A DNA stretch of 64,000 bases, from contig BK006949.2 in assembly GCA_000146045.2 (NCBI GenBank), positions 832,001-896,000 on the forward strand, given 5' to 3'. The notes under the pieces are model-generated. The model was not told the DNA's origin. It did no database searches and saw only the letters and a program-made list of their open reading frames with translations. Source of the DNA: TPA_inf: Saccharomyces (lineage: Eukaryota). A program made the position numbers and the translations under genes. This document shows positions 3,563-48,726 of this stretch, piece by piece. Positions within the stretch are counted from its first letter, which is position 1, and every line of letters starts with the position of its first letter.

Positions 3563-5413
3563 CTAATGGATTAAAAACCTGCCATATACGTGGTATATCC
3601 TGTTGACGACATTTATATGAGCTCCGGAGTCAAGATTGGTATCCACCAGTTCCTCAACGTCCCTAAACCATTCTTTCTTTCTTGAACGCGGGATCAAAAA
3701 ACTTCCCAATTTGTATAAGTTAGAAACCTCAATCACTAGTAGACCCTGGTTTAAGTGTTCCTCATCGGCGTCCGCACCTTGTTTAGAATAATTCAAAACT
3801 CTTTCCACATTATTCAAACTTATACTTATTTGCTCCCTATACCGTTTTTCATTAGACCAGACATTGCCTAGTTTGACAAATCTTTTTAACGCCACTATAG
3901 AAGAATATAGTATCACTAAAGCCGGAGATAATGCTACAACTCCAAACACCAACTGTTGCGATTTCAGCATTTTATCAATGCCATTCAATGCCATAGATCC
4001 ATCGACTTTTGTTTTTTGCAGTTGAATCAATAAAGACCTGACTAATCCACCCGTAGCTATATTCTTTATCGGATGATGTAGTTGTGTTTCATATATTTCC
4101 ATAAATTCGGTCAAATCACCATGTTCGACTTTAGTACTCAATAGAATAGGGTCTATGGGGCTGTTAGACGTCGAATCACTATTATCCACAACAAAACTAA
4201 CAATCATTCTGGTAAGAGAATCCATGTCAGAGTTTAATGTCTCCTGTGATGTCACTGAAATGGCGCTTCCCTCGTCATGCTTAACAGTAGACCAAACCTG
4301 TTTCAGGGGTGCCCATAACCAGTTCAAGATCAGCCCTTTCGCAAAGTCAACGACATTGGTCTTAATGAAATCTTGAATAAAATACCGGGAATTCCACAAC
4401 GACATAACAGAAGATGGTCCATATAAAAGACACAACAAAATTGAAGGCCAGTATCTAGTCAATATACTTGGTTTAGTGAACCTTCTTAAAGGATGATCTT
4501 TATGAAATTTCGCTGAGCATCGGATCACATCTAGTAAATTCGAATCAGACATGGCTAATCCAAAGAAGTCCTGTAAAGATTTTAGACGTCTTTCGTAGTT
4601 CGGTAAATGTACTTCGGTGAACATACCATTTTCTTCTGGTTGTTGATCGAATTCAGTGATCAACTGCCCCAGTTTAATAGTATAATACTTTGATGATTGA
4701 GTGACCATATCAAGTCTTTCGTGCACTATACCGCGAGGTATATCAGAAACCAATGAAGCTATTTCAATTGGTTTCTTCGGTAGCCCGACAAACCTGAAGT
4801 TCCGAATCACCATAAATTTGTTTATTCTTGGGCGTATTTTTTCTAGTAAATCAACTGACAAGGCCTTTAGGGACCATTTTTGATGCGACAGTTTTTTCTT
4901 ATTTACATCCTTCAAAACAGTTTGAGATAAAAGACGTATTGTCGATACTGAATTTTGTAAACAGTAAAGAAAAGACTTTAGGATTGAATCACTTACTGTT
5001 TTGTAGTACTGTTCAGCTTCATACACGGCAGGTAAACCTTGGACGCATTCGTTGGTCACAGAATAGTAGCACAATAATATAATGTACTCAAATATGGCTT
5101 GGCTAACAAGATATTGCAAATCTCCGTCTTCAAAGGATGAGGGATCAGCAATGTCCTTGCAAATATTGTATAGCAAATCAAAAGGCACCGAACAATAAGA
5201 GTCAATATTGTCAGTTTTGATTGAAATGCAGATTTTTTCAACAATTGACCTGATCAATTGTAATTGATCTTGTAACCTACTTAGTTCTTCATTTTCCTCA
5301 CGTACGTCTTGAATCAATTGTTGCTGTGAATCAAATGCAACCTCTCGTAGTGATTCCTCTAATGAATGACTTATCTCTTCAAAAGATTTCAAAATACGCC
5401 TATTGATGATCAT
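3563..5413 (-). CDS. NCA2: Nuclear control of ATPase protein 2, 616 aa
   Basis: Uninterrupted 616 aa ORF. The length and the position between PIN3 and TPO3 match YPR155C. Confidence 0.75.
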   Translation of the reverse strand: MIINRRILKSFEEISHSLEESLREVAFDSQQQLIQDVREENEELSRLQDQLQLIRSIVEKICISIKTDNIDSYCSVPFDLLYNICKDIADPSSFEDGDLQYLVSQAIFEYIILLCYYSVTNECVQGLPAVYEAEQYYKTVSDSILKSFLYCLQNSVSTIRLLSQTVLKDVNKKKLSHQKWSLKALSVDLLEKIRPRINKFMVIRNFRFVGLPKKPIEIASLVSDIPRGIVHERLDMVTQSSKYYTIKLGQLITEFDQQPEENGMFTEVHLPNYERRLKSLQDFFGLAMSDSNLLDVIRCSAKFHKDHPLRRFTKPSILTRYWPSILLCLLYGPSSVMSLWNSRYFIQDFIKTNVVDFAKGLILNWLWAPLKQVWSTVKHDEGSAISVTSQETLNSDMDSLTRMIVSFVVDNSDSTSNSPIDPILLSTKVEHGDLTEFMEIYETQLHHPIKNIATGGLVRSLLIQLQKTKVDGSMALNGIDKMLKSQQLVFGVVALSPALVILYSSIVALKRFVKLGNVWSNEKRYREQISISLNNVERVLNYSKQGADADEEHLNQGLLVIEVSNLYKLGSFLIPRSRKKEWFRDVEELVDTNLDSGAHINVVNRIYHVYGRFLIH

Positions 5414-10669: not shown

Positions 10670-11261
10670 AGAACTTTATGACAACAGAATGTTCTGATTG
10701 TAATATAATGACAAATTTTAATCTTTAGTAATATCTAATATAATAGTTAATGATAAATAGTTAATTCTAATGTTTAATGATCTGCAAATACTTTTTATGT
10801 TTTTCAACATAGTTTTTAATGTGTTTCTACACTTGATCGCAACTAAATCTAAATAAACACACAAGCACAAAATATGATAAAAAAGCAATTTGGCTAGAAG
10901 CACAGGAACCAAATATGACGTTCAATTCAAATAGACCCTTATTTCTGGTCTTGTTCATCAGTCCCTGATGTCTTGCTCTTTCCTTCTGCAATTGATAGCG
11001 CCACACTTCTCAAAAGCAGTGGAAAAAAAAATCATTTCCCAGAAGAACGCGAGAGAACTCCATAGAAAAAAGGGAACTTTCCTACTCAAAAGAGAAAGGG
11101 AAAAATAATTGCGATATATCTTATAGCCTTTTTTTTTTTCCAACTTTCTATTTTTGTAAAAATGAAAATTTCCTTCATAAGCTACAATAAGACTACTCCA
11201 TCCCTTGTTTCCTCAACGCACCGAACTCGATAGGACTGGTCGTAAAACAGAAAACTGACTA

Positions 11262-12020
11262 ATGGCTGCCGCATGCATTTGTCAACCTAATCTTCTTGAG
11301 ATTAATGTATCTGATGGACCACTGGATATGATCCGCAAGAAAAGAAAAATACAACAGCCGCAACTACGTCCACCCCTTCGAGAGAATAAATGCCAACCAC
11401 ACTTTTCTGTACGAAAGGTAAACCAGTCTTACATAATTTCTCTCCATAAAGAAATCACATGCCAACTCATTGCAGAAATTGTCAAACAAAAGTTATCGAG
11501 GATTTGGGAAAAAGTATACATACCATCTTATGAACTGATATCAGACAAAGACGGTAATCAAATTTATGTGGAACAGAGTGTCGACGAAAATAGGCTAACT
11601 TCTGAGATTATGGAGAAACTGGACCCCAACAATATTGATATAGAGGCGATCGAAATATTATTCGACGACTATCACCTAGAATTATCACGCTTGACAAACG
11701 GTATTATTATATCTAGTGCCAATGATCACTTTTACAGGGAATTCTCCTTCAATAACATAATTGATGACAACTTTAAAATTTGTGGAACAAGCATGTCTGC
11801 AGACAGTTTTGATAAGATTTATGGCGTTATGTGGATTGAAGTACCTTTCAATGGCAATGGCTTACAGAATGATAGCGCCGTTAATAGGGTTTCAACATCT
11901 CACAATCAGATAGAAGAATTGAATGACATAGAGCAGGAGATAAGAGCTTTTAATATTAGTCGAAGTAATCAAGAAAGTATCATCAAAAAGGAAGTATCTA
12001 GAAGATTGAATGGGCGGTAA
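11262..12020 (+). CDS. CUR1: Sorting factor/chaperone-cofactor-like protein, 252 aa
   Basis: 252 aa ORF immediately upstream of the Ty1 pair. Length and context match YPR158W. Confidence 0.7.
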   Translation: MAAACICQPNLLEINVSDGPLDMIRKKRKIQQPQLRPPLRENKCQPHFSVRKVNQSYIISLHKEITCQLIAEIVKQKLSRIWEKVYIPSYELISDKDGNQIYVEQSVDENRLTSEIMEKLDPNNIDIEAIEILFDDYHLELSRLTNGIIISSANDHFYREFSFNNIIDDNFKICGTSMSADSFDKIYGVMWIEVPFNGNGLQNDSAVNRVSTSHNQIEELNDIEQEIRAFNISRSNQESIIKKEVSRRLNGR

Positions 12021-12359
12021 GAAATACGGGCTACGGAATTTACCGTGTGTCTTCAAATTGAGTGTCACCCTGTAAGGCTTTCTACTCTATCACAAAATAT
12101 TACATATTCTAATTCTACAATTATAGATATCAAACTTGATAAATTTAGTAGCAAATATGAAGTATTATTATGCATTTCAAAAAATTCCATTGTCCCTTCT
12201 CTTGGGCGCTTGAATTCTAAAAAAAATTAGCGCATCGCTAATAGCGCGTTTGAACCCGTCTTAAGAATGTTCATACCAGTATCAACAAGGGGTATGTTCC
12301 TCAGCATTATCTGAAGGTACTCCTCTAAATTTTTAAGTAAGAAAAGGCGTATAGTCATA

Positions 12360-12411
12360 TAATTGTTGGGAATCCACCACTGATAAAGGTTATAATATCA
12401 GGTAAAGAAAT
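12360..12411 (-). repeat. Older, diverged delta (Ty1/Ty2 LTR) remnant, U5-proximal part in reverse orientation, split by the Ty1 copy 1 insertion
   Basis: The reverse complement reads ...tacctgatattataacctttatcagtggtggattcccaacaatt, which is homologous to the 3' part of a delta LTR. It continues, across Ty1 copy 1, in the 18341-18494 fragment. Confidence 0.55.
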
Positions 12412-12749
12412 TGTTGGAATAAAAATCCACTATCGTCTATCAACTAATAGTTATATTATCAATATATTATCATATACGGTGTTAAGATGATGACATAAGT
12501 TATGAGAAGCTGTCATCGATGTTAGAGGAAGCTGAAACGCAAGGATTGATAATGTAATAGGATCAATGAATATAAACATATAAAACGGAATGAGGAATAA
12601 TCGTAATATTAGTATGTAGAAATATAGATTCCATTTTGAGGATTCCTATATCCTCGAGGAGAACTTCTAGTATATTCTGTATACCTAATATTATAGCCTT
12701 TATCAACAATGGAATCCCAACAATTATCTAATTACCCACATATATCTCA
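12412..12749 (+). repeat. Ty1 copy 1, 5' LTR (delta)
   Basis: Begins TGTTGGAATAAAAATCC and ends ...CCCACATATATCTCA. It is identical in length to the 3' LTR at 18003-18340. Confidence 0.9.
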
Positions 12750-14031
12750 TGGTAGCGCCTGTGCTTCGGTTACTTCTAAGGAAGTCCACACAAATCAAGA
12801 TCCGTTAGACGTTTCAGCTTCCAAAATTCAAGAATATGATAAGGCTTCCACTAAGGCTAACTCTCAACAGACAACAACACCTGCTTCATCAGCTGTTCCA
12901 GAGAACCCCCATCATGCCTCTCCTCAACCTGCTTCAGTACCACCTCCACAGAATGGGCCGTACCCACAGCAGTGCATGATGACCCAAAACCAAGCCAATC
13001 CATCTGGTTGGTCATTTTACGGACACCCATCTATGATTCCGTATACACCTTATCAAATGTCGCCTATGTACTTTCCACCTGGGCCACAATCACAGTTTCC
13101 GCAGTATCCATCATCAGTTGGAACGCCTCTGAGCACTCCATCACCTGAGTCAGGTAATACATTTACTGATTCATCCTCAGCGGACTCTGATATGACATCC
13201 ACTAAAAAATATGTCAGACCACCACCAATGTTAACCTCACCTAATGACTTTCCAAATTGGGTTAAAACATACATCAAATTTTTACAAAACTCGAATCTCG
13301 GTGGTATTATTCCGACAGTAAACGGAAAACCCGTACGTCCGATCACTGATGATGAACTCACCTTCTTGTATAACACTTTTCAAATATTTGCTCCCTCTCA
13401 ATTCCTACCTACCTGGGTCAAAGACATCCTATCCGTTGATTATACGGATATCATGAAAATTCTTTCCAAAAGTATTGAAAAAATGCAATCTGATACCCAA
13501 GAGGCAAACGACATTGTGACCCTGGCAAATTTGCAATATAATGGCAGTACACCTGCAGATGCATTTGAAACAAAAGTCACAAACATTATCGACAGACTGA
13601 ACAATAATGGCATTCATATCAATAACAAGGTCGCATGTCAATTAATTATGAGAGGTCTATCTGGCGAATATAAATTTTTACGCTACACACGTCATCGACA
13701 TCTAAATATGACAGTCGCTGAACTGTTCTTAGATATCCATGCTATTTATGAAGAACAACAGGGATCGAGAAACAGCAAACCTAATTACAGGAGAAATCCG
13801 AGTGATGAGAAGAATGATTCTCGCAGCTATACGAATACAACCAAACCCAAAGTTATAGCTCGGAATCCTCAAAAAACAAATAATTCGAAATCGAAAACAG
13901 CCAGGGCTCACAATGTATCCACATCTAATAACTCTCCCAGCACGGACAACGATTCCATCAGTAAATCAACTACTGAACCGATTCAATTGAACAATAAGCA
14001 CGACCTTCATCTTAGGCCAGAAACTTACTGA
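12709..14031 (+). CDS. TYA: Ty1 TYA (Gag capsid protein), 440 aa; initiation lies inside the 5' LTR
   Basis: MESQQLSNY...LHLRPETY matches the canonical Ty1 Gag. It ends just past the CTTAGGC frameshift heptamer. Confidence 0.95.
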
Positions 14032-17000
14032 ATCTACAGTAAATCATACTAATCATTCTGATGATGAACTCCCTGGACACCTCCTTCTCGATTCAGGAGC
14101 ATCACGAACCCTTATAAGATCTGCTCATCACATACACTCAGCATCATCTAATCCTGACATAAACGTAGTTGATGCTCAAAAAAGAAATATACCAATTAAC
14201 GCTATTGGTGACCTACAATTTCACTTCCAGGACAACACCAAAACATCAATAAAGGTATTGCACACTCCTAACATAGCCTATGACTTACTCAGTTTGAATG
14301 AATTGGCTGCAGTAGATATCACAGCATGCTTTACCAAAAACGTCTTAGAACGGTCTGACGGCACTGTACTTGCACCTATCGTAAAATATGGAGACTTTTA
14401 CTGGGTATCTAAAAAGTACTTGCTTCCATCAAATATCTCCGTACCCACCATCAATAATGTCCATACAAGTGAAAGTACACGCAAATATCCTTATCCTTTC
14501 ATTCATCGAATGCTTGCGCATGCCAATGCACAGACAATTCGATACTCACTTAAAAATAACACCATCACGTATTTTAACGAATCAGATGTCGACTGGTCTA
14601 GTGCTATTGACTATCAATGTCCTGATTGTTTAATCGGCAAAAGCACCAAACACAGACATATCAAAGGTTCACGACTAAAATACCAAAATTCATACGAACC
14701 CTTTCAATACCTACATACTGACATATTTGGTCCAGTTCACAACCTACCAAAAAGTGCACCATCCTATTTCATCTCATTTACTGATGAGACAACAAAATTC
14801 CGTTGGGTTTATCCATTACACGACCGTCGCGAGGACTCTATCCTCGATGTTTTTACTACGATACTAGCTTTTATTAAAAACCAGTTTCAGGCCAGTGTCT
14901 TGGTTATACAAATGGACCGTGGTTCTGAGTATACTAACAGAACTCTCCATAAATTCCTTGAAAAAAAAAATGGTATAACTCCATGCTATACAACCACAGC
15001 GGATTCCCGAGCACATGGAGTCGCTGAACGGCTAAACCGTACCTTATTAGATGACTGCCGTACTCAACTGCAATGTAGTGGTTTACCGAACCATTTATGG
15101 TTCTCTGCAATCGAATTTTCTACTATTGTGAGAAATTCACTAGCTTCACCTAAAAGCAAAAAATCTGCAAGACAACATGCTGGCTTGGCAGGACTTGATA
15201 TCAGTACTTTGTTACCTTTCGGTCAACCTGTTATCGTCAATGATCACAACCCTAACTCCAAAATACATCCTCGTGGCATCCCAGGCTACGCTCTACATCC
15301 GTCTCGAAACTCTTATGGATATATCATCTATCTTCCATCCTTAAAGAAGACAGTAGATACAACTAACTATGTTATTCTTCAGGGCAAGGAATCCAGATTA
15401 GATCAATTCAATTACGACGCACTCACTTTCGATGAAGACTTAAACCGTTTAACTGCTTCATATCATTCGTTCATTGCGTCAAATGAGATCCAAGAATCCA
15501 ATGATCTTAACATAGAATCTGACCATGACTTCCAATCCGACATTGAACTACATCCTGAGCAACCGAGAAATGTCCTTTCAAAAGCTGTGAGTCCAACCGA
15601 TTCCACACCTCCGTCAACTCATACTGAAGATTCGAAACGTGTTTCTAAAACCAATATTCGCGCACCCAGAGAAGTTGACCCCAACATATCTGAATCTAAT
15701 ATTCTTCCATCAAAGAAGAGATCTAGCACCCCCCAAATTTCCAATATCGAGAGTACCGGTTCGGGTGGTATGCATAAATTAAATGTTCCTTTACTTGCTC
15801 CCATGTCCCAATCTAACACACATGAGTCGTCGCACGCCAGTAAATCTAAAGATTTCAGACACTCAGACTCGTACAGTGAAAATGAGACTAATCATACAAA
15901 CGTACCAATATCCAGTACGGGTGGTACCAACAACAAAACTGTTCCGCAGATAAGTGACCAAGAGACTGAGAAAAGGATTATACACCGTTCACCTTCAATC
16001 GATGCTTCTCCACCGGAAAATAATTCATCGCACAATATTGTTCCTATCAAAACGCCAACTACTGTTTCTGAACAGAATACCGAGGAATCTATCATCGCTG
16101 ATCTCCCACTCCCTGATCTACCTCCAGAATCTCCTACCGAATTCCCTGACCCATTTAAAGAACTCCCACCGATAAATTCTCATCAAACTAATTCCAGTTT
16201 GGGTGGTATTGGTGACTCTAATGCCTATACTACTATCAACAGTAAGAAAAGATCATTAGAAGATAATGAAACTGAAATTAAGGTATCACGAGACACATGG
16301 AATACTAAGAATATGCGTAGTTTAGAACCTCCGAGATCGAAGAAACGAATTCACCTGATTGCAGCTGTAAAAGCAGTAAAATCAATCAAACCAATACGGA
16401 CAACCTTAAGATACGATGAGGCAATCACCTATAATAAAGATATTAAAGAAAAGGAAAAATATATCGAAGCATACCACAAAGAAGTCAACCAACTATTGAA
16501 AATGAATACTTGGGACACTGACAAATATTATGACAGAAAAGAAATAGACCCTAAAAGAGTAATAAATTCAATGTTTATCTTCAACAGGAAACGTGACGGT
16601 ACTCATAAAGCTAGATTTGTTGCAAGAGGTGATATTCAGCATCCTGACACTTACGACTCAGGCATGCAATCCAATACCGTACATCACTATGCATTAATGA
16701 CATCCCTGTCACTTGCATTAGACAATAACTACTATATTACACAATTAGACATATCTTCGGCATATTTGTATGCAGACATCAAAGAAGAATTATACATAAG
16801 ACCTCCACCACATTTAGGAATGAATGATAAGTTGATACGTTTGAAGAAATCACTTTATGGATTGAAACAAAGTGGAGCGAACTGGTACGAAACTATCAAA
16901 TCATACCTGATAAAACAGTGTGGTATGGAAGAAGTTCGTGGATGGTCATGCGTATTTAAGAATAGTCAAGTAACAATTTGCTTATTCGTTGATGATATGA

Positions 17001-17980
17001 TATTGTTCAGCAAAGACTTAAATGCAAATAAGAAAATCATAACAACACTCAAGAAACAATACGATACAAAGATAATAAATCTGGGTGAAAGTGATAACGA
17101 AATTCAGTACGACATACTTGGCTTAGAAATCAAATATCAAAGAGGTAAATACATGAAATTAGGTATGGAAAACTCATTAACTGAGAAAATACCCAAATTA
17201 AACGTACCTTTGAATCCAAAAGGAAGAAAACTTAGCGCTCCAGGTCAACCAGGTCTTTATATAGACCAGGATGAACTAGAAATAGATGAAGATGAATACA
17301 AAGAGAAGGTACATGAAATGCAAAAGTTGATTGGTCTAGCTTCATATGTTGGATATAAATTTAGATTTGACTTACTATACTACATCAACACACTTGCTCA
17401 ACATATACTATTCCCCTCTAGGCAAGTTTTAGACATGACATATGAGTTAATACAATTCATGTGGGACACTAGAGATAAACAACTGATATGGCACAAAAAC
17501 AAACCTACCGAGCCAGATAATAAACTAGTCGCAATAAGTGATGCTTCATATGGTAACCAACCATATTACAAGTCACAAATTGGCAACATATATTTACTTA
17601 ATGGAAAGGTAATTGGAGGAAAGTCCACCAAGGCTTCATTAACATGTACTTCAACTACGGAAGCAGAAATACACGCGATAAGTGAATCTGTCCCATTATT
17701 AAATAACCTCAGTCACCTTGTGCAAGAACTTAACAAGAAACCAATTACTAAAGGATTACTAACCGACAGTAAATCTACAATCAGTATAATTATATCCAAT
17801 AATGAAGAGAAATTTAGAAACAGATTTTTTGGTACTAAAGCAATGAGACTAAGAGATGAAGTATCAGGAAATCATCTGCACGTATGCTATATCGAAACCA
17901 AAAAGAATATTGCAGACGTAATGACCAAACCTCTTCCGATAAAAACATTCAAACTATTAACAAACAAATGGATTCATTAG
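12709..17980 (+). CDS. TYB: Ty1 TYA-TYB Gag-Pol fusion (protease, integrase, reverse transcriptase/RNase H) made by +1 ribosomal frameshifting at CTT-AGG-C (14011-14017): join(12709..14013,14015..17980)
   Basis: The heptamer CTTAGGC is at 14011-14017. The downstream 1240 aa open frame is +1 relative to TYA. Integrase signatures are [15 protein letters not shown] and DRGSEYTN; the reverse transcriptase signatures include the YVDD-like [11 protein letters not shown]. Confidence 0.9.
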
Positions 17981-18002
17981 ATCTATTACATTATGGGTGG
18001 TA

Positions 18003-18340
18003 TGTTGGAATAAAAATCCACTATCGTCTATCAACTAATAGTTATATTATCAATATATTATCATATACGGTGTTAAGATGATGACATAAGTTATGAGAAG
18101 CTGTCATCGATGTTAGAGGAAGCTGAAACGCAAGGATTGATAATGTAATAGGATCAATGAATATAAACATATAAAACGGAATGAGGAATAATCGTAATAT
18201 TAGTATGTAGAAATATAGATTCCATTTTGAGGATTCCTATATCCTCGAGGAGAACTTCTAGTATATTCTGTATACCTAATATTATAGCCTTTATCAACAA
18301 TGGAATCCCAACAATTATCTAATTACCCACATATATCTCA
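18003..18340 (+). repeat. Ty1 copy 1, 3' LTR (delta)
   Basis: TGTTGGAATA...ATATATCTCA, preceded by the PPT GGGTGGTA. Confidence 0.9.
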
Positions 18341-18494
18341 GAAATTTTACTAGAAGTTCATTATCCTATTACTTATCAATCCTTGCATTTCAGCTTTCAT
18401 TAAATGTGCTCACTGTTTCTCAATCTTTATGCCATATTTTTGCACCGTATACGATAACATGCAAATAGTACGAATACTAATCGATATGTGATGG
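18341..18494 (-). repeat. Older diverged delta remnant (U3-proximal part, reverse orientation) carrying an internal deletion; it continues the 12360-12411 fragment
   Basis: The reverse complement reads tgttggaataagaatcaaccatc...gaaagctgaaatgcaaggattgataagtaataggataatgaacttctagta. That is recognisably delta, but about 15-20 percent diverged from the Ty1 LTRs here. Confidence 0.6.
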
Positions 18495-18613
18495 TTGATT
18501 CTTATTCCAACAATTATCTTGAACTTCAATCAACTCTCGCAGTTGTCACGTGCAATTTGATACATGTCGCGTTGATATACAAGTACTAAATACGGTACAC
18601 AATGGATTATTTC

Positions 18614-18628
18614 TGTTGTATCTCAAAA
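18614..18628 (+). repeat. First 15 nt of a Ty3 sigma solo LTR (TGTTGTATCTCAAAA), separated from the rest of sigma by the Ty1 copy 2 insertion
   Basis: Matches the sigma 5' terminus exactly. The remaining 326 nt of sigma resume at 24560, after the duplicated CAAAA. Confidence 0.7.
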
Positions 18629-18988
18629 TGAGAAATGGGTGAATGTTGAGATAATTGTTGGGATTCCATTGTTGATAAAGGCTATAATATTAGGTATACA
18701 GAATATACTAGAAGTTCTCCTCGAGGATATAGGAATCCTCAAAATGGAATCTATATTTCTACATACTAATATTACGATTATTCCTCATTCCGTTTTATAT
18801 GTTTATATTCATTGATCCTATTACATTATCAATCCTTGCGTTTCAGCTTCCTCTAACATCGATGACAGCTTCTCATAACTTATGTCATCATCTTAACACC
18901 GTATATGATAATATATTGATAATATAACTATTAGTTGATAGACGATAGTGGATTTTTATTCCAACATACCACCCATAATGTAATAGAT

Positions 18989-21900
18989 CTAATGAATCCA
19001 TTTGTTTGTTAATAGTTTGAATGTTTTTATCGGAAGAGGTTTGGTCATTACGTCTGCAATATTCTTTTTGGTTTCGATATAGCATACGTGCAGATGATTT
19101 CCTGATACTTCATCTCTTAGTCTCATTGCTTTAGTACCAAAAAATCTGTTTCTAAATTTCTCTTCATTATTGGATATAATTATACTGATTGTAGATTTAC
19201 TGTCGGTTAGTAATCCTTTAGTAATTGGTTTCTTGTTAAGTTCTTGCACAAGGTGACTGAGGTTATTTAATAATGGGACAGATTCACTTATCGCGTGTAT
19301 TTCTGCTTCCGTAGTTGAAGTACATGTTAATGAAGCCTTGGTGGACTTTCCTCCAATTACCTTTCCATTAAGTAAATATATGTTGCCAATTTGTGACTTG
19401 TAATATGGTTGGTTACCATACGAAGCATCACTTATTGCGACTAGTTTATTATCTGGCTCGGTAGGTTTGTTTTTGTGCCATATCAGTTGTTTATCTCTAG
19501 TGTCCCACATGAATTGTATCAACTCATATGTCATGTCTAAAACTTGCCTAGAGGGGAATAGTATATGTTGAGCAAGTGTGTTGATGTAGTATAGTAAGTC
19601 AAATCTAAATTTATATCCAACATATGAAGCTAGACCAATCAACTTTTGCATTTCATGTACCTTCTCTTTGTATTCATCTTCATCTATTTCTAGTTCATCC
19701 TGGTCTATATAAAGACCTGGTTGACCTGGAGCGCTAAGTTTTCTTCCTTTTGGATTCAAAGGTACGTTTAATTTGGGTATTTTCTCAGTTAATGAGTTTT
19801 CCATACCTAATTTCATGTATTTACCTCTTTGATATTTGATTTCTAAGCCAAGTATGTCGTACTGAATTTCGTTATCACTTTCACCCAGATTTATTATCTT
19901 TGTATCGTATTGTTTCTTGAGTGTTGTTATGATTTTCTTATTTGCATTTAAGTCTTTGCTGAACAATATCATATCATCAACGAATAAGCAAATTGTTACT
20001 TGACTATTCTTAAATACGCATGACCATCCACGAACTTCTTCCATACCACACTGTTTTATCAGGTATGATTTGATAGTTTCGTACCAGTTCGCTCCACTTT
20101 GTTTCAATCCATAATGTGATTTCTTCAAACGTATCAACTTATCATTCATTCCTAAATGTGGTGGAGGTCTTATGTATAATTCTTCTTTGATGTCTGCATA
20201 CAAATATGCCGAAGATATGTCTAATTGTGTAATATAGTAGTTATTGTCTAATGCAAGTGACAGGGATGTCATCAACGCATAATGATGTACAGTGTTGGAT
20301 TGCATACCTGTATCGTACGTATCAGGATGCTGAATGTCACCTCTTGCAACAAATCTAGCTTTATGAGTTCCGTCACGTTTCTTGTTGAAGATAAACATTG
20401 AATTTATTACTCTTTTGGGGTCTATTTCTTTTCTGTCATAATATCTGTCAGTGTCCCAAGTTTTCATCTTCAACAGTTGGTTGACTTCTTTGTGGTATGC
20501 TTCGATATATTTTTCTTTTTCTTTAATATCTTTATTATAGGTGATTGCCTCATCGTATCGTAAGGTTGTTCGTATTGGTTTGATTGATTTTACTGCTTTT
20601 ACAGCTGCAATCAGGTGAATTCGTTTCTTCGATCTCGGAGGTTCTAAACTACGCATATTCTTAGTATTCCATGTGTCTCGTGATACCTTAATTTCAGTTT
20701 CATTATCTTCTAATGATCTTTTCTTACTGTTGATAGTAGTATAGGCATTAGAGTCACCAATACCACCCAAACTGGAATTAGTTTGACGAGAATTGATCGG
20801 TGGAAGTTCTTTAAAGGAGTCTGATAATTCGGTAGGAGGTTCTGGAGGCGGATCGGGAAGTGGGAGATCAGCGATAATAGATTCCTCGGTATTCTGTTCA
20901 GAAACAGTAGTTGGCGTTTTGATAGGAACAATATTGTGCGATGAATTATTTTCCGGTGGAGAAGCATCGATTGAAGGTGAACGGTGTATAATCCTTTTCT
21001 CAGTCTCCTGGTCGCTTATCTGCGGAACAGTTTTGTTGTTGGTACCACCCGTACTGGATATTGGTACGTTTGTATGATTAGTCTCATTGTTACTGTACGA
21101 GTCTGAGTGTCTGAAATCTTTAGATTTACTGGCGTGCGACGACTCATGTGTGTTAGATTGGGACATGGGAGCAAGTAAAGGAACATTTAATTTATGCATA
21201 CCACCCGAACCGGTACTCTCGATATTGGAAATTTGGGGGGTGCTAGATCTCTTCTTTGATGGAAGAATATTAGATTCAGATATGTTGGGGTCAACTTCTC
21301 TGGGTGCACGAAGATTGATTTCAGATATAGGTTTTGAATCTTCAGTATGAGTTGACGGAGGTGTGGAATCGGTTGGACTCACAGCTTTTGAAAGGACATT
21401 TCTCGGTTGCTCAGGATGTAGTTCAATGTCAGATTGGAAGTCATGGTCAGATTCTATGTTAAGATCATTGGATTCTTGGATCTCATTTGACGCAATGAAC
21501 GAATGATATGAAGCAGTTAAACGGTTTAAGTCTTCATCGAAAGTGAGTGCGTCGTAATTGAATTGATCTAATCTGGATTCCTTGCCCTGAAGAATAACAT
21601 AGTTAGTTGTATCTACTGTCTTCTTTAAGGATGGAAGATAGATGATATATCCATAAGAGTTTCGAGACGGATGTAGAGCGTAACCTGGGATGCCACGAGG
21701 ATGTATTTTGGAGTTAGGGTTGTGATCATTGACGATAACAGGTTGACCGAAAGGTAACAAAGTACTGATATCAAGTCCTGCCAAGCCAGCATGTTGGCTT
21801 GCAGATTTTTTGCTTTTAGGTGAAGCTAGTGAATTTCTCACAATAGTAGAAAATTCGATTGCAGAGAACCATAAATGGTTCGGTAAACCACTACATTGCA

Positions 21901-24257
21901 GTTGAGTACGGCAGTCATCTAATAAGGTACGGTTGAGCCGTTCAGCGACTCCATGTGCTCGGGAATCCGCTGTGGTTGTATAGCATGGAGTTATACCATT
22001 TTTTTCAAGGAATTTATGGAGAGTTCTGTTAGTATACTCAGAACCACGGTCCATTTGTATAACCAAGACACTGGCCTGAAATTGGTTTTTAATGAAAGCT
22101 AGTATCGTGGTAAATACATCGAGGATAGAGTCCTCGCGACGGTCGTGCAATGGATAAACCCAACGGAATTTTGTTGTCTCATCAGTAAATGAGATGAAAT
22201 AGGATGGTGCACTTTTTGGTAGGTTGTGAACTGGACCAAATATGTCAGTATGTAGGTATTGAAAGGGTTCGTATGAATTTTGGTATTTTAGTCGTGAACC
22301 TTTGATATGTCTGTGTTTGGTGCTTTTGCCGATTAAACAATCAGGACATTGATAGTCAATAGCACTAGACCAGTCGACATCTGATTCGTTAAAATACGTG
22401 ATGGTGTTATTTTTAAGTGAGTATCGAATTGTCTGTGCATTGGCATGCGCAAGCATTCGATGAATGAAAGGATAAGGATATTTGCGTGTACTTTCACTTG
22501 TATGGACATTATTGATGGTGGGTACGGAGATATTTGATGGAAGCAAGTACCTTTTAGATACCCAGTAAAAGTCTCCATATTGTACGATAGGTGCAAGTAC
22601 AGTGCCGTCAGATCGTTCTAAGACGTTTTTGGTAAAGCATGCTGTGATATCTACTGCAGCCAATTCATTCAAACTGAGTAAGTCATAGGCTATGTTAGGA
22701 GTGTGCAATACCTTTATTGATGTTTTGGTGTTGTCCTGGAAGTGAAATTGTAGGTCACCAATAGCGTTAATTGGTATATTTCTTTTTTGAGCATCAACTA
22801 CGTTTATGTCAGGATTAGATGATGCTGAGTGTATGTGATGAGCAGATCTTATAAGGGTTCGTGATGCTCCTGAATCGAGAAGGAGGTGTCCAGGGAGTTC
22901 ATCATCAGAATGATTAGTGTGATTTACCGTAGATTCAGTAAGTTCCTGGCCTAAGGTGAAGGTCGTGCTTATTGTTCAATTGAATCGGTTCAGTAGTTGA
23001 TTTACTGATGGAATCGTTGTCCGTGCTGGGAGAGTTATTAGATGTGGATACATTGTGAGCCCTGGCTGTTTTCGATTTCGAATTATTTGTTTTTTGAGGA
23101 TTCCGAGCTATAACTTTGGGTTTGGTTGTATTCGTATAGCTGCGAGAATCATTCTTCTCATCACTCAGATTTCTCCTGTAATTAGGTTTGCTGTTTCTCG
23201 ATCCCTGTTGTTCTTCATAAATAGCATGGATATCTAAGAACAGTTCAGCGACTGTCATATTTAGATGTCGATGACGTGTGTAGCGTAAAAATTTATATTC
23301 GCCAGATAGACCTCTCATAATTAATTGGCATGCGACCTTGTTATTGATATGAATGCCATTATTGTTCAGTCTGTCGATAATGTTTGTGACTTTTGTTTCA
23401 AATGCATCTGCAGGTGTACTGCCATTATATTGCAAATTTGCCAGGGTCACAATGTCGTTTGCCTCTTGGGTATCAGATTGCATTTTTTCAATACTTTTGG
23501 AAAGAATTTTCATGATATCCGTATAATCAACGGATAGGATGTCTTTGACCCAGGTAGGTAGGAATTGAGAGGGAGCAAATATTTGAAAAGTGTTATACAA
23601 GAAGGTGAGTTCATCATCAGTGATCTGACGTACGGGTTTTCCGTTTACTGTCGGAATAATACCACCGAGATTCGAGTTTTGTAAAAATTTGATGTATGTT
23701 TTAACCCAATTTGGAAAGTCATTAGGTGAGGTTAACATTGGTGGTGGTCTGACATATTTTTTAGTGGATGTCATATCAGAGTCTGCTGAGGATGAATCAG
23801 TAAATGTATTACCTGACTCAGGTGATGGAGTGCTCAGAGGCGTTCCAACTGATGATGGATACTGCGGAAACTGTGATTGTGGCCCAGGTGGAAAGTACAT
23901 AGGCGACATTTGATAAGGTGTATACGGAATCATAGATGGGTGTCCGTAAAATGACCAACCAGATGGATTGGCTTGGTTTTGGGTCATCATGCACTGCTGT
24001 GGGTACGGCCCATTCTGTGGAGGTGGTACTGAAGCAGGTTGAGGAGAGGCATGATGGGGGTTCTCTGGAACAGCTGATGAAGCAGGTGTTGTTGTCTGTT
24101 GAGAGTTAGCCTTAGTAGAAGCCTTCTCACATTCTTCTGTTTTGGAAGCTGAAACGTCTAACGGATCTTGATTTGTGTGGACTTCCTTAGAAGTAACCGA
24201 AGCACAGGCGCTACCATGAGAAATGGGTGAATAATTAGATAATTGTTGGGATTCCAT
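18989..24257 (-). CDS. TYB: Ty1 Gag-Pol fusion, copy 2, via +1 frameshift at CTTAGGC: complement(join(18989..22951,22953..24257))
   Basis: Intact 1239 aa Pol frame carrying the same integrase, RT and RNase H motifs as copy 1. Confidence 0.9.
22935..24257 (-). CDS. TYA: Ty1 TYA (Gag), 440 aa, copy 2
   Basis: [14 protein letters not shown]...LHLRPGTY. The frameshift heptamer is at 22949-22955 (minus strand). Confidence 0.95.
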
Positions 24258-24554
24258 TGTTGATAAAGGCTATAATATTAGGTATACAGAATATACTAGA
24301 AGTTCTCCTCGAGGATATAGGAATCCTCAAAATGGAATCTATATTTCTACATACTAATATTACGATTATTCCTCATTCCGTTTTATATGTTTATATTCAT
24401 TGATCCTATTACATTATCAATCCTTGCGTTTCAGCTTCCTCTAACATCGATGACAGCTTCTCATAACTTATGTCATCATCTTAACACCGTATATGATAAT
24501 ATATTGATAATATAACTATTAGTTGATAGACGATAGTGGATTTTTATTCCAACA

Positions 24555-24885
24555 CAAAATGAGATATGTCAGTATGACAATACGTCATCCTGAACGTTCA
24601 TAAAACACATATGAAACAACCTTATAACAAAACGAACAACATGAGACAAAACCCGTCCTTCCCTAGCTGAACTACCCAAAAGTATAAATGCCTGAACAAT
24701 TAGTTTAGATCCGAGATTCCGCGCTTCCACCACTTAGTATGATTCATATTTTATATAATATATAAGATAAGTAACATTCCGTGAATTAATCTGATAAACT
24801 GTTTTGACAACTGGTTACTTCCCTAAGACTGTTTATATTAGGATTGTCAAGACACTCCGGTATTACTCGAGCCCGTAATACAACA
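24555..24885 (+). repeat. Ty3 sigma solo LTR (main part), ending 16 bp upstream of tA(AGC)
   Basis: ...CAAAATGAGATATGTCAGTATGACAATACGTC ... CTCGAGCCCGTAATACAACA is the sigma consensus. Its position 16-17 bp upstream of a tRNA gene is the hallmark of Ty3 integration. Confidence 0.85.
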
Positions 24886-24901
24886 ATTTACAACAAGATT
24901 C

Positions 24902-24974
24902 GGGCGTGTGGCGTAGTCGGTAGCGCGCTCCCTTAGCATGGGAGAGGTCTCCGGTTCGATTCCGGACTCGTCCA
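24902..24974 (+). tRNA. tA(AGC): tRNA-Ala (anticodon AGC)
   Basis: GGGCGTGTGGCGTAGTCGGTAGCGCGCTCCCTTAGCATGGGAGAGGTCTCCGGTTCGATTCCGGACTCGTCCA has the A-box/B-box, an AGC anticodon loop, and a downstream T-rich terminator. Confidence 0.9.
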
Positions 24975-25582: not shown

Positions 25583-27745
25583 ATGCCTTTGAGAAATCTA
25601 ACTGAAACGCACAACTTTAGTAGCACAAACCTGGACACAGATGGTACAGGCGACGATCATGATGGTGCTCCTCTTTCCTCATCTCCTTCTTTTGGACAAC
25701 AAAATGACAATAGCACCAACGATAATGCTGGTCTCACAAACCCTTTTATGGGGAGTGACGAAGAATCTAATGCGCGGGATGGAGAATCTCTGTCTTCTTC
25801 TGTTCATTATCAGCCACAGGGGAGTGACTCTTCACTACTTCATGACAATTCTCGTCTAGATCTAAGTCAAAATAAAGGTGTATCTGATTACAAAGGTTAC
25901 TATTCCAGGAACAATAGTAGAGCTGTGAGTACGGCTAATGATAACTCATTTCTTCAGCCACCACATAGAGCTATAGCCTCTTCTCCTTCTTTGAATTCTA
26001 ATTTATCGAAGAATGATATTCTCTCACCGCCAGAATTTGATAGATATCCCTTAGTGGGTTCCAGAGTCACTTCTATGACTCAACTGAACCATCATGGTCG
26101 CTCGCCAACATCATCTCCAGGAAACGAGTCGTCCGCCTCATTCTCTTCTAATCCGTTTTTGGGCGAGCAAGATTTTTCTCCATTTGGTGGGTATCCTGCT
26201 TCATCGTTCCCACTTATGATAGATGAAAAGGAAGAAGATGATTATTTACACAATCCTGACCCCGAAGAAGAGGCAAGACTGGATAGAAGGAGGTTCATAG
26301 ATGACTTCAAGTACATGGATAAAAGGTCTGCTAGTGGGCTAGCTGGTGTATTGCTCTTGTTTCTGGCAGCCATCTTTATTTTTATTGTTTTGCCAGCGTT
26401 GACCTTTACCGGTGCTATTGATCACGAAAGCAACACTGAAGAAGTTACATATTTAACTCAATACCAATATCCTCAACTATCCGCCATTAGAACATCTCTG
26501 GTTGACCCAGACACACCTGATACAGCGAAGACAAGAGAAGCTATGGATGGCTCTAAGTGGGAATTAGTATTTTCTGATGAGTTTAATGCAGAAGGCAGAA
26601 CATTTTATGATGGGGATGATCCATACTGGACAGCCCCTGATGTTCACTATGATGCTACTAAGGATTTAGAATGGTACAGTCCAGACGCTTCCACAACTGT
26701 GAACGGAACCTTGCAGCTGAGAATGGATGCCTTTAAGAACCATGGCTTATATTACAGATCAGGTATGTTGCAGAGTTGGAATAAGGTTTGTTTCACGCAG
26801 GGTGCTCTAGAAATCTCTGCAAATCTACCAAATTATGGCCGTGTTTCAGGTTTGTGGCCCGGTCTTTGGACTATGGGTAATTTAGGGAGGCCCGGTTATT
26901 TGGCTAGTACCCAAGGTGTCTGGCCTTATTCTTATGAATCGTGTGATGCTGGTATTACACCCAACCAAAGTTCCCCGGATGGTATTTCTTACTTGCCGGG
27001 ACAAAAGTTAAGTATTTGTACTTGTGATGGTGAAGATCATCCGAATCAAGGTGTTGGTAGAGGAGCTCCAGAAATTGATGTTTTGGAAGGTGAAACTGAT
27101 ACTAAGATTGGTGTAGGTATAGCCTCTCAATCCTTGCAAATTGCACCTTTTGATATCTGGTACATGCCTGACTATGATTTTATCGAGGTTTACAATTTCA
27201 CAACAACGACCATGAACACTTATGCTGGCGGTCCATTTCAACAAGCCGTATCTGCTGTCTCAACTTTGAACGTAACTTGGTATGAATTCGGTGAGTACGG
27301 TGGCTACTTTCAAAAATATGCCATTGAGTATCTGAACGATGACGACAATGGTTATATCCGTTGGTTTGTTGGTGATACTCCAACTTATACTATTCATGCT
27401 AAAGCCTTACATCCTGATGGTAATATTGGTTGGAGAAGAATCAGTAAAGAACCAATGTCGATTATTCTAAATCTGGGTATTTCCAACAATTGGGCTTATA
27501 TTGATTGGCAGTATATTTTCTTCCCAGTGGTTATGTCGATTGACTATGTTAGAATATACCAACCAAGTAATGCTATATCCGTGACATGCGATCCAAGTGA
27601 CTATCCAACATATGATTATATTCAATCGCACTTAAATGCATTCCAGAATGCAAACTTAACTACTTGGGAAGATGCTGGTTACACGTTCCCTAAGAATATC
27701 CTAACTGGTAAATGTACTAGCTCGAAGTTCAAGTTATCCTCTTAA
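25583..27745 (+). CDS. KRE6: Type II membrane glycoprotein needed for beta-1,6-glucan synthesis (GH16-like lumenal domain), 720 aa
   Basis: Ser-rich cytoplasmic N-terminus, a single transmembrane segment (LLLFLAAIFIFIVLPALTF), and a GH16-like domain. The 720 aa length matches KRE6. Confidence 0.85.
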   Translation: MPLRNLTETHNFSSTNLDTDGTGDDHDGAPLSSSPSFGQQNDNSTNDNAGLTNPFMGSDEESNARDGESLSSSVHYQPQGSDSSLLHDNSRLDLSQNKGVSDYKGYYSRNNSRAVSTANDNSFLQPPHRAIASSPSLNSNLSKNDILSPPEFDRYPLVGSRVTSMTQLNHHGRSPTSSPGNESSASFSSNPFLGEQDFSPFGGYPASSFPLMIDEKEEDDYLHNPDPEEEARLDRRRFIDDFKYMDKRSASGLAGVLLLFLAAIFIFIVLPALTFTGAIDHESNTEEVTYLTQYQYPQLSAIRTSLVDPDTPDTAKTREAMDGSKWELVFSDEFNAEGRTFYDGDDPYWTAPDVHYDATKDLEWYSPDASTTVNGTLQLRMDAFKNHGLYYRSGMLQSWNKVCFTQGALEISANLPNYGRVSGLWPGLWTMGNLGRPGYLASTQGVWPYSYESCDAGITPNQSSPDGISYLPGQKLSICTCDGEDHPNQGVGRGAPEIDVLEGETDTKIGVGIASQSLQIAPFDIWYMPDYDFIEVYNFTTTTMNTYAGGPFQQAVSAVSTLNVTWYEFGEYGGYFQKYAIEYLNDDDNGYIRWFVGDTPTYTIHAKALHPDGNIGWRRISKEPMSIILNLGISNNWAYIDWQYIFFPVVMSIDYVRIYQPSNAISVTCDPSDYPTYDYIQSHLNAFQNANLTTWEDAGYTFPKNILTGKCTSSKFKLSS

Positions 27746-48168: not shown

Positions 48169-48295
48169 ATTATTTCTTTTTTACTAAGAAAAACATATAT
48201 CATTTATATTCAGAAATAAATAGGATTATTAACCTAGTGCTCCCAAAAAAAATAAGTTGAACTGTCTCTTTCGAGAAAAAGAAAGAGAAAAGAAA

Positions 48296-48369
48296 TGGTC
48301 TCTAGCGGGATCGAACCGCTGATCCCCGCGTTATTAGCACGGTGCCTTAACCAACTGGGCCAAGAGACC
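48296..48369 (-). tRNA. tI(AAU): tRNA-Ile (anticodon AAU)
   Basis: The reverse complement GGTCTCTTGGCCCAGTTGGTTAAGGCACCGTGCTAATAACGCGGGGATCAGCGGTTCGATCCCGCTAGAGACCA carries an AAT anticodon loop. The terminator lies on the low-coordinate side. Confidence 0.9.
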
Positions 48370-48386
48370 ATTATATTGTTAAAGAT

Positions 48387-48726
48387 GTTGTATCTCAAAA
48401 TGGGATACGTCAGTATGACAATACTTCATCCTAAACGTTCATAAAACACATATGAAACAACTTTATAACAAAACGAACAACATGAGGTAAAACCCGGCCT
48501 CCCCTAGCTGAACAACTCAAACGTATAAATGCCTGAACAATTAGTTTAGATCCGAGTTTCCGCGCTTCCACCATTTAGTATGATTCATATTTTATATAAT
48601 ATATAGGATAAGTAACATCCCGTGAATCAAGCTGATAAACAGTTTTGACAACTGGTTACTTCCCTAAGACTGTTTATATTAGGATTGTCAAGACACTCCG
48701 GTATTACTCGAGCCCGTAATACAACA
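48387..48726 (+). repeat. Ty3 sigma solo LTR, 17 bp from the 5' end of tI(AAU)
   Basis: TGTTGTATCTCAAAATGGGATACGTCAGTATGAC...CGAGCCCGTAATACAACA runs about 340 bp and is roughly 93 percent identical (by eye) to the sigma at 24555-24885. Confidence 0.85.

Follow-up and report, generated by a model that had tools for sequence, protein, structure and literature searches.

Layered Ty insertions upstream of a tRNA-Ala(AGC) gene in Saccharomyces cerevisiae

Elements upstream of the tRNA gene

The window, the whole 64,000-nucleotide stretch analysed here (contig BK006949.2, positions 832,001 to 896,000 of the forward strand), is S. cerevisiae DNA of S288C type from chromosome XVI and contains a plus-strand tRNA-Ala (AGC) gene at 24902–24974, located by ARAGORN and which we take to be tA(AGC)P of SGD. 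Upstream of this Pol III gene, which attracts insertions, lie an old solo delta, a solo sigma and two Ty1 copies. All are annotated in S288C (as YPRCdelta22, YPRWsigma3, YPRWTy1-3 and YPRCTy1-4), and the finding is in that sense already known.

The sigma YPRWsigma3 lies on the plus strand in two parts: a stub of nucleotides 1–15 to the left of Ty1 copy 2 (18614–18628) and nucleotides 16–341 (24560–24885), the latter delimited by alignment to an independent sigma at 48386–48726. Joined as the initial annotation had proposed, the parts form a 341-bp sigma that matches the independent copy without a gap at 322 of 341 positions (5.6% divergence) and perfectly over the Ty1 junction. Its end at 24885 is 16 bp upstream of the tRNA start, confirming the canonical Ty3 position. 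The sigma-empty alleles described below identify its target-site duplication as ATTTC on the left (18609–18613) and, on the right, a copy that is now ATTTA (24886–24890; ATTAA in two strains). All sigma-bearing alleles seen read ATTTC–sigma–ATT(T/A)A, and the right copy matches the left at 4/5 positions in every allele seen.

Alignment places the old delta on the minus strand, a detail missing from the initial annotation. Its U5-side piece occupies 12338–12411, with the Ty1 LTR alignment extending to ~12338 and taking in the left GAAAT of copy 1, and its U3-side piece occupies 18346–18512, ending in TTATTCCAACA. BLAST covers 12351/12359–12404 of the first piece and matches 18357–18512 to LTR positions 159–1, with E-values for the two pieces of 7e-20 and ~1e-9. 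When the flanks of copy 1 are rejoined with a single GAAAT, the delta runs colinear with the Ty1 LTR through the junction, at 182/241 identical positions, bearing out the alignment initially suggested, and shows a ~97-nt internal deletion and ~75% identity. It had been described, correctly, as diverged and internally deleted; the limits given for it (12360 and 18494) and its distance of about 120 bp from the sigma are to be revised to ~12338, 18512 and 101 bp. No target-site duplication of the delta itself is recognisable (TTAAG versus ATTAT). The spacer between delta and sigma (18513–18608) carries no repeat annotation, has no RepeatMasker fragment in File S3 of Carr et al. 2012, and is kept among S. 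cerevisiae strains.

Ty1 copy 1, YPRWTy1-3 (12412–18340, plus strand, 5929 bp), is bounded by LTRs of 338 bp each (12412–12749 and 18003–18340) that are 100% identical, and contains both the PBS (TGGTAGCGCC) and the PPT (GGGTGGTA). Its TYA (12709–14031) and TYB frame (14258–17980) specify a Gag of 440 aa and, via CTTAGGC, a Gag-Pol of 1756 aa. The element sits inside the old delta between copies of GAAAT at 12407–12411 and 18341–18345, as first read from the sequence; empty alleles have a single copy of this motif.

Ty1 copy 2, YPRCTy1-4 (18629–24554, 5926 bp), lies on the minus strand, with its 3′ LTR at 18629–18966, its 5′ LTR at 24217–24554, TYA at 22935–24257 and the TYB frame at 18989–22708 (Gag, 440 aa; Gag-Pol, 1755 aa). 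Its target-site duplication, CAAAA, consists of the last five nucleotides of the sigma stub (18624–18628) and a repeat of sigma nucleotides 11–15 at 24555–24559, which confirms the insertion after sigma nucleotide 15. Gag and Gag-Pol are intact in both copies, each with Pfam matches to TYA, rve and RVT_2, and both, judged from their sequence, look functional.

Empty alleles and the independence of the two Ty1 insertions

In other S. cerevisiae assemblies, copy 1 is missing from at least 27 loci and copy 2 from 17. The 40-mers predicted for the empty sites match exactly in many of them (L002, L003, L006, L008, L009 and L016, among others), giving an uninterrupted delta with one GAAAT and an uninterrupted sigma with one CAAAA, the alleles by which the initial annotation had proposed to judge its reading. 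A 1697-bp reconstruction without the Ty1 copies matches L002 over its full length, at 99.5%. Both copies are present in L007, an S288C assembly. L001, a laboratory strain named as IMX2600 in PMC13363411, carries copy 1 (5928/5929 identical) and has an empty copy 2 site. Three further loci (L027, L028 and L029) are sigma-empty, with a clean site, a single ATTTC and the delta still present; their sequence reads GGATTATTTC, then CAACAAGATTC, then the tRNA. The delta is in every allele seen, and the assemblies examined yielded no S. cerevisiae allele with an empty delta site. The alleles form a series: sigma-empty, sigma only, sigma with copy 1, and sigma with both copies. Other strains have a Ty2 or a solo delta within the same sigma, and the hotspot shows repeated, independent hits in S. 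mikatae as well as in other strains.

We consider it highly probable (about 0.9) that four separate integrase-mediated insertions, of the delta, the sigma, copy 1 and copy 2, built the locus upstream of tRNA-Ala(AGC). For the two Ty1 copies, the competing explanation is recombination, with cDNA or ectopic conversion of an LTR already in place, or an inversion or duplication involving the two inverted copies, as possible routes. The arrangement invites such a reading, as the copies are inverted, only 288 bp apart and identical to each other over LTR positions 1–318, and Ty–Ty recombination is seen at this same site in L011, whose Ty2 lacks a duplication and is joined on its right to foreign sequence. 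However, each copy has its own perfect 5-bp duplication; a 5/5 flank match is expected by chance at ~1.3e-3 from composition (1.4e-3 empirically in this window), and both together at ~1.7e-6. Had the pair undergone inversion an odd number of times, its flanks would have been exchanged and neither duplication would have survived. The copies differ, patchily, at 92 positions, the empty alleles hold no young LTR at either site but an uninterrupted old delta or sigma, and copy 1 occurs without copy 2 in IMX2600. Recombination is thus essentially already refuted as the origin of either copy, and the independent integrase-type insertions initially proposed stand.

The LTRs of copy 2 differ from each other just at LTR positions 319, 321 and 322 (window 18648, 18646 and 18645 in the 3′ LTR versus 24236, 24234 and 24233 in the 5′ LTR). 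On the minus strand, the 5′ LTR has AATTA instead of CAACA in this patch (24233–24236), the matching positions of the 3′ LTR (18645–18648) being unchanged; Gag read from the 3′ LTR contains QHS, and the 5′ LTR reading differs. Among S288C active Ty1 LTRs the chimeric U5 occurs once, in chrXVI_u35-_TY1_5, which is this same 5′ LTR, and the parental U5 types occur 8 and 9 times. The three clustered differences are best read as one event, which combined the two U5 types common in S288C within the 5′ LTR. It was most likely a short post-integration conversion tract from a ‘NYPHIS’-type LTR, for example that of the neighbouring copy 1, its direction and timing being putative. The later gene conversion first suggested for the 3-nt difference, which is itself confirmed, is plausible and would fit a chimera confined to the 5′ LTR of copy 2.

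It is possible, though rather unlikely, that the mismatch instead arose before or during integration, through template switching between co-packaged RNAs and intermolecular strand transfer, or that the 3′ LTR was the one converted. Both parental types are abundant, and other S288C Ty1 elements have mosaic U5 ends (for example chrXV_u31), so recombination in this 20-nt stretch is common. Against this, a single minus-strand strong-stop DNA is the source of both new U5 copies in standard Ty1 replication, which leads one to expect identical LTRs in a fresh insertion, as copy 1 has, and the absence of the chimera from every other S288C active LTR disfavours a chimeric progenitor lineage.

Order of the insertions

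The most likely order is delta, sigma, copy 1, copy 2. In the first step, a Ty1-type element would have inserted in minus orientation ~112 bp upstream of the tRNA gene and collapsed to the solo delta, which in S. cerevisiae would then have lost its ~97 internal nucleotides and decayed. A Ty3 would next have inserted where Pol III transcription starts, generating the ATTTC duplication, and collapsed to the solo sigma, an allele that is still polymorphic within the species. Copy 1 entered the old delta in laboratory-strain ancestry and, in the S288C lineage only, a different Ty1, copy 2, entered between sigma nucleotides 15 and 16 in the opposite orientation. Empty-site alleles directly show the copy 1 and copy 2 insertions, and sigma-empty alleles the target site of the sigma. 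That the delta came before the sigma, and copy 1 before copy 2, is argued by parsimony from the existing alleles, and the two solo LTRs probably formed by LTR–LTR recombination, going by established Ty biology. The precedence of copy 1, as also given in the initial annotation, is not readable from the sequence alone: it depends on one intermediate allele, that of IMX2600, a strain presumably related to S288C.

The initial annotation had placed the sigma first and the delta second, and this we reverse. Neither LTR lies inside the other, so nothing in the window directly contradicts a sigma-first order, and comparative data, rather than the sequence, are needed to decide. These make it very improbable that the sigma came first. 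The delta is ~25% diverged and internally deleted and has no recognisable duplication, whereas the sigma is little diverged and keeps most of its own; alleles with delta and no sigma exist, and the converse was not found among the assemblies examined; and in the scoring of Carr et al. 2012 the delta is fixed but the sigma polymorphic. In S. paradoxus, moreover, two loci (L012 and L015) have a full-length minus-strand delta whose U5 end, measured relative to a conserved flank anchor, is 0–2 nt from the S. cerevisiae position, and at both the sigma is absent.

This comparison indicates that the delta insertion most likely predates the S. cerevisiae–S. paradoxus split. Separate insertions at the same hotspot position in each species are an unlikely but credible alternative, under which the delta would nevertheless precede the sigma in S. 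cerevisiae. Such an origin would suit a hotspot that is struck so often, and each delta resembles the modern Ty1 LTR (72–73%) more closely than it does the other delta (67.5% identical). The delta–tRNA spacers (112 nt in S. cerevisiae, 134 nt in S. paradoxus), including 18513–18608 of the window, also give no alignment between the species (z = 1.4), although the outer flanks align well. This implies at least one further event there and leaves orthology supported less than fully, but the extra event is needed in either scenario. Favouring a shared insertion are the common orientation and closely coincident U5 ends, and 21 differences from the modern LTR that are common to both; the variable sites split 21 shared, 30 and 38, which fits roughly equal decay on two lineages. 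The raw divergence of ~32% likewise matches the neutral expectation, as neutral DNA of the two species, judged by synonymous divergence, is ~32% diverged.

Relation to earlier annotations and known Ty hotspots

The elements can be compared with those of Carr, Bensasson and Bergman 2012 (PLoS One, Files S2/S3), who analysed the same DNA (window coordinate + 832000 − 4 gives the sacCer2 coordinate for every fragment). There, delta22 is fixed (29/29), sigma3 polymorphic (14/22) and YPRCTy1-4 S288c-only (1/22); YPRWTy1-3 is flagged ‘1-nested’, and REannotate joins the two delta22 fragments (844355–844400, window 12359–12404, and 850353–850508) across it. Our results differ from theirs as follows. 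Carr et al. 2012 start delta22 at window 12359, where our alignment supports ~12338; of sigma3 they give just the right part, 331 bp, leaving out the 15-nt stub; they give YPRCTy1-4 no nested flag; and they report YPRWTy1-3 in 14/15 strains, whereas in our survey it is confined to S288C-type and IMX2600 assemblies.

The locus is an ordinary, standard tRNA-gene hotspot of LTR retrotransposons that target Pol III genes. Ty3 integrates at the Pol III transcription start site, and Ty1 and Ty2 in a window upstream of tRNA genes, which for Ty1 Devine and Boeke are said to have put at ~750 bp in 1996. The sigma, ending 16 bp from the mature tRNA 5′ end, behaves like Ty3, and the Ty1 insertions, 342 and 625 bp upstream in the pre-insertion alleles, fall inside that reported window, so that nothing here departs from the known behaviour of Pol III-directed Ty1, Ty2 and Ty3 integration. 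The recovered allele series serves as a neat illustration and does not represent anything new in kind. The left-arm and right-arm Ty hotspots of chromosome III, reportedly described by Warmington and colleagues in 1986 and Ji and colleagues in 1993, and in a genome survey by Kim and colleagues in 1998, are different loci with the same layering of solo LTRs and full-length elements, nested LTRs, readable 5-bp duplications and strain polymorphism.

Nested Ty elements upstream of tRNA-Ala

Upstream of the tRNA-Ala(AGC) gene at 24902–24974 lies an inverted pair of full-length Ty1 elements. Copy 1 (YPRWTy1-3) occupies 12412–18340 on the + strand (5929 bp, with both 338-bp LTRs identical), and copy 2 (YPRCTy1-4) occupies 18629–24554 on the − strand (5926 bp, with LTR mismatches only at LTR positions 319, 321 and 322). 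The pair is flanked by a 252-aa ORF (11262–12020) on one side and by a 720-aa ORF of the SKN1/KRE6 family (25583–27745) on the other; we take the window to be S288C chromosome XVI 832001–896000, and the Ty locus to sit between CUR1 and KRE6. The chromosome XVI placement is supported by the sacCer2 coordinates of Carr, Bensasson and Bergman (2012, PLoS One, supplementary Files S2/S3/S6; hereafter Carr et al.), which equal window position + 832000 − 4 for every repeat fragment.

Both copies carry the hallmarks of Ty1 (Pseudoviridae, copia-type): direct LTRs of 338 bp reading TGTTGG...TCTCA (direct Ty1 LTRs being ~334–338 bp, TG...CA), a target-site duplication, and TYA and TYB. Each has TGGTAGCGCC after the 5′ LTR and ...GGGTGGTA before the 3′ LTR, which are the primer-binding site for initiator tRNA-Met and the polypurine tract, respectively. 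Gag is intact in both (440 aa), and a +1 frameshift at a single in-frame CTTAGGC gives a Gag–Pol fusion of 1756 aa in copy 1 and 1755 aa in copy 2; Pfam matches on both were TYA (775 bits), rve (integrase) and RVT_2. The two copies differ at 92 positions, distributed patchily as in mosaic Ty1 elements, and therefore came from different source elements.

The 3′ LTRs of the two copies face each other (18003–18966) as a 338-bp inverted repeat, ~98% identical with 288 bp between, and the full copies form an inverted repeat of ~5.9 kb. Such an arrangement is prone to hairpin and fold-back rearrangements. Both copies are named in papers about gross chromosomal rearrangements.

Copy 1 had been proposed to lie inside an old delta with a GAAAT duplication, and the positions are exact (12407–12411 and 18341–18345); the chance that all 5 nt agree at fixed element ends is ~1.3e-3 per element. 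Joined with one GAAAT, the copy 1 flanks match a Ty1 LTR colinearly through the junction (182/241 identical, both termini aligned), which bears out their delta origin. The bounds proposed for this delta, 12360–18494, did not hold: it is a minus-strand element running from ~12338 to 18512. An internal deletion of ~97 nt lies within a few bases of the junction, on one side, and BLAST E-values for the two pieces were 7e-20 and ~1e-9. With similarity at both ends and colinearity once the nested element is removed, this solo LTR (YPRCdelta22) is classed as a Ty1/Ty2 delta; Carr et al. assign it to TY1. A 5-bp duplication of its own was not found at its flanks (TTAAG at 12333–12337, ATTAT at 18513–18517), which does not count against an LTR origin because this is expected with 25% divergence and an uncertain U5 boundary. 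An apparent extra + strand delta U5 fragment at 18504–18538 (inverted-repeat match I10, 74% over 35 nt) was rejected because the match is short and weak, and no fragment is listed there by Carr et al.

Copy 2 interrupts a Ty3 sigma (YPRWsigma3) after its first 15 nt, as the initial annotation had it, and the CAAAA duplication is at exactly 18624–18628 and 24555–24559. Positions 18614–18628 joined to 24560–24885 give a 341-bp sigma that aligns without gaps to the independent sigma at 48386–48726 (322/341, perfect over the junction). YPRWsigma3 has the length (~340 bp), the ends (TGTTGTATC...ACAACA) and the full-length similarity to other sigmas that define this LTR. Its last base is 24885 and the tRNA begins at 24902, so that the reported 16-bp spacing, at the Ty3 position, is correct.

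Empty alleles and the order of insertion

Exact matches to the protein encoded upstream, CUR1, and to allelic variants of it were used to retrieve the same locus from other assemblies. In many of these loci, the 40-mers predicted for the empty sites (one GAAAT or one CAAAA) matched exactly, and the reconstructed doubly empty intergenic region (1697 bp) aligned end to end with one of them (L002) at 99.5%. Copy 1 is absent from at least 27 loci and copy 2 from at least 17, judged by exact 40-mers and colinear alignments among loci that are not all independent strains. Comparison with strains lacking the Ty1 copies had been named as the check, and it revealed a contiguous delta and a contiguous sigma, each with its single GAAAT or CAAAA. 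Two loci that looked like length-variant alleles (L005 and L010) were rejected as such; runs of N cross their sigma, and they are uninformative for sigma and copy 2.

Recombination offers another route to such a pair, either by conversion of an existing LTR with cDNA or by inversion between the inverted copies. We rejected it because neither route would yield a perfect duplication at each copy together with clean empty alleles; a young LTR was seen at neither Ty1 position in any empty allele examined. Together with the 92 differences, these observations support the initial view of independent insertions.

An S288C assembly (L007) has both Ty1 copies. Strain IMX2600 (L001), presumably a CEN.PK-derived laboratory strain, has copy 1, with one base different in a poly-A run, together with an intact sigma and an empty copy 2 site; copy 1 therefore came first and copy 2 second. 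This order agrees with the S288c-only score that Carr et al. give YPRCTy1-4, which among the assemblies we examined is likewise carried by S288C assemblies only. Row chrXVI_i15+_TY1 of their File S2 scores YPRWTy1-3 as present in 14/15 SGRP strains. Among the complete assemblies examined, we found YPRWTy1-3 only in S288C-type and IMX2600 DNA, and low-coverage, reference-guided assemblies probably produced the 14/15 score artefactually.

As sigma and delta are not nested in one another, the window alone cannot order them. The initial annotation had placed sigma first and delta second; comparative data reverse this. Three S. cerevisiae loci (L027, L028 and L029) are precisely empty of sigma, reading ...GGATTATTTC, then CAACAAGATTC, then the tRNA, and still contain the old delta. 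Carr et al. score delta22 as fixed (29/29) and sigma3 as polymorphic (14/22), and S. paradoxus has a delta and no sigma. Sigma-empty alleles have one ATTTC, which identifies ATTTC as the Ty3 target; sigma-bearing alleles read ATTTC...ATTTA, the right copy being ATTAA in two of them, so that the duplication matches at 4/5 with one substitution common to all occupied alleles. A clean sigma-empty site was also sought in S. paradoxus, where the spacer is unalignable and such a site was not demonstrable; the S. cerevisiae sigma-empty alleles were therefore used instead. The most likely chronology is delta, sigma, Ty1-3, Ty1-4.

In S. paradoxus (L015, from GCA_002079055.1, and the nearly identical L012), the same intergenic region holds a minus-strand delta of full length and lacks sigma. 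Relative to a conserved flank anchor, the U5 end of this delta is 0–2 nt from the S. cerevisiae position. We compared the two deltas in a three-way LTR alignment, as aligning the intergenic region globally with MAFFT gave a misleading result near the internal deletion. Of the delta sites, 21 are shared-derived, 30 S. paradoxus-specific and 38 S. cerevisiae-specific, which is the expectation for one ancestral insertion decaying along two lineages. We hold with moderate confidence that the delta is older than the S. cerevisiae/S. paradoxus split and, likewise with moderate confidence, that the ~97-nt deletion happened in the S. cerevisiae lineage. If true, a delta kept at one site since before that split would be of modest novelty. 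The spacer between delta and tRNA (18513–18613) is identical (100%) across S. cerevisiae strains but unalignable between the species (against L015 11419–11552, z = 1.4), although both sides align; an additional event is needed under any scenario. An orthologue of the old delta was not found at the S. mikatae locus, which has its own, different LTR content.

The U5 mismatch of copy 2

LTR positions 1–318 are identical in all four LTRs of the two Ty1 copies. Copy 1 LTRs end in ...AATTACCCACATATATCTCA, and the copy 2 3′ LTR has the canonical end ...CAACATTCACCCATTTCTCA. The copy 2 5′ LTR ends in ...AATTATTCACCCATTTCTCA, which is copy 1-like through position 323 and canonical from 324; the 3-nt U5 difference between the copy 2 LTRs noted initially is thus confirmed.

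In standard Ty1 replication, a new insertion derives its two U5 copies from one strong-stop DNA. For this reason the simplest reading of the patch, from the sequences compared, would be one later, short conversion tract into the copy 2 5′ LTR. Among the active S288C Ty1 LTRs aligned by Carr et al., only one is the chimera, chrXVI_u35-_TY1_5 (the copy 2 5′ LTR itself), and the parental U5 types occur 8 and 9 times; possible donors are copy 1 and at least nine LTRs of that type. The mismatch may instead stem from an event at the reverse-transcription stage, or from conversion of the copy 2 3′ LTR. A different mosaic U5 end exists in another S288C Ty1 (File S6 record chrXV_u31+_TY1_5, AATTACCCACAAATTTCTCA), and recombination thus seems to recur within the final 20 nt of the Ty1 LTR. 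A single later conversion of the 5′ LTR would remain the simplest account of copy 2. A look-up with the exact copy 2 Gag for other places with the ‘NYS’ U5 returned no record, probably as only the longest product per gene is indexed.

Further hits at the tRNA-Ala locus

Other assemblies carry other insertions at this locus. L004 (GCA_949121775.1) has a full-length minus-strand Ty2 at 11616–17584 (5969 bp, its two 332-bp LTRs identical) that duplicated GTATG at nt 193–197 of the same sigma, and both S288C Ty1 sites are empty. In L021 and L022 (GCA_029989255.1 and GCA_000977925.3), a 318-bp minus-strand solo delta, ~84% identical to the Ty1 LTR, lies at locus positions 4620–4937 inside the same sigma, duplicating GATTC at sigma nt 197–201; this adds another independent insertion, one already reduced to a solo LTR. 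In L011 (ENA ERZ27273419 contig_740), a Ty2 at ~11167–17125 is joined to the sigma at ~nt 92 (~nt 88–92). The other end of this Ty2 abuts unrelated DNA (tRNA-Cys, cyclin genes) with no matching duplication, CUR1 has frame-breaking differences, and the locus is either a Ty-mediated translocation at the hotspot or an assembly chimera. The S. mikatae locus (L013, GCA_947241705.1) has its own independent sigma at 11588–11934, in the opposite orientation and ~16 bp from the orthologous tRNA-Ala, together with a short delta U5 fragment and ~440 bp beginning TGTTGATAATTAG, possibly another LTR.

Among ~30 loci, the 341-bp sigma has taken at least four independent Ty1/Ty2-type hits (nt 11–15, 193–197, 197–201 and ~88–92), and the remainder of the ~650-bp upstream region one. 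A tentative and rather doubtful suggestion is that the polymorphic sigma became the part of the hotspot where insertions preferentially land; the pattern may be a small-sample effect. If it were true, a Ty3 LTR at a Pol III start would reposition the nucleosomes upstream of it and thereby redirect subsequent integration of Ty1/Ty2.

A second layered hotspot extends over 48295–48726 and on to ~49830, where YPRWsigma4 (48386–48726, +) lies 15 bp from tRNA-Ile(AAU) (48295–48370, −). A weak sigma-like match follows at 48774–48810, and just past it come a Ty3p fragment and a Ty4 LTR, both listed by Carr et al.

The elements of the locus (YPRCdelta22, YPRWTy1-3, YPRCTy1-4 and YPRWsigma3) were all already annotated, with systematic names for decades, and the REannotate output of Carr et al. 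already records YPRWTy1-3 nested in YPRCdelta22. The initial finding is real, right in its essentials and ordinary. To it we add confirmation from complete assemblies, a corrected chronology and allele series, the Ty3 target, better delta boundaries, independent strikes at the tRNA-Ala in other strains and two sister species, and a probable trans-species delta. An unlisted 15-nt sigma stub to the left of YPRCTy1-4 is also new, and means that YPRCTy1-4, too, is nested. The locus offers a compact example of dating retrotransposon layers by target-site duplications and empty alleles, with little beyond teaching value.

Before insertion, the copy 1 and copy 2 sites lay 625 bp and 342 bp upstream of the tRNA, respectively. 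Ty3 inserts where Pol III transcription starts, whereas Ty1/Ty2 insertions fall in a window on the upstream side of Pol III genes (PMC5911963), and this locus conforms to that known Pol III-directed behaviour.
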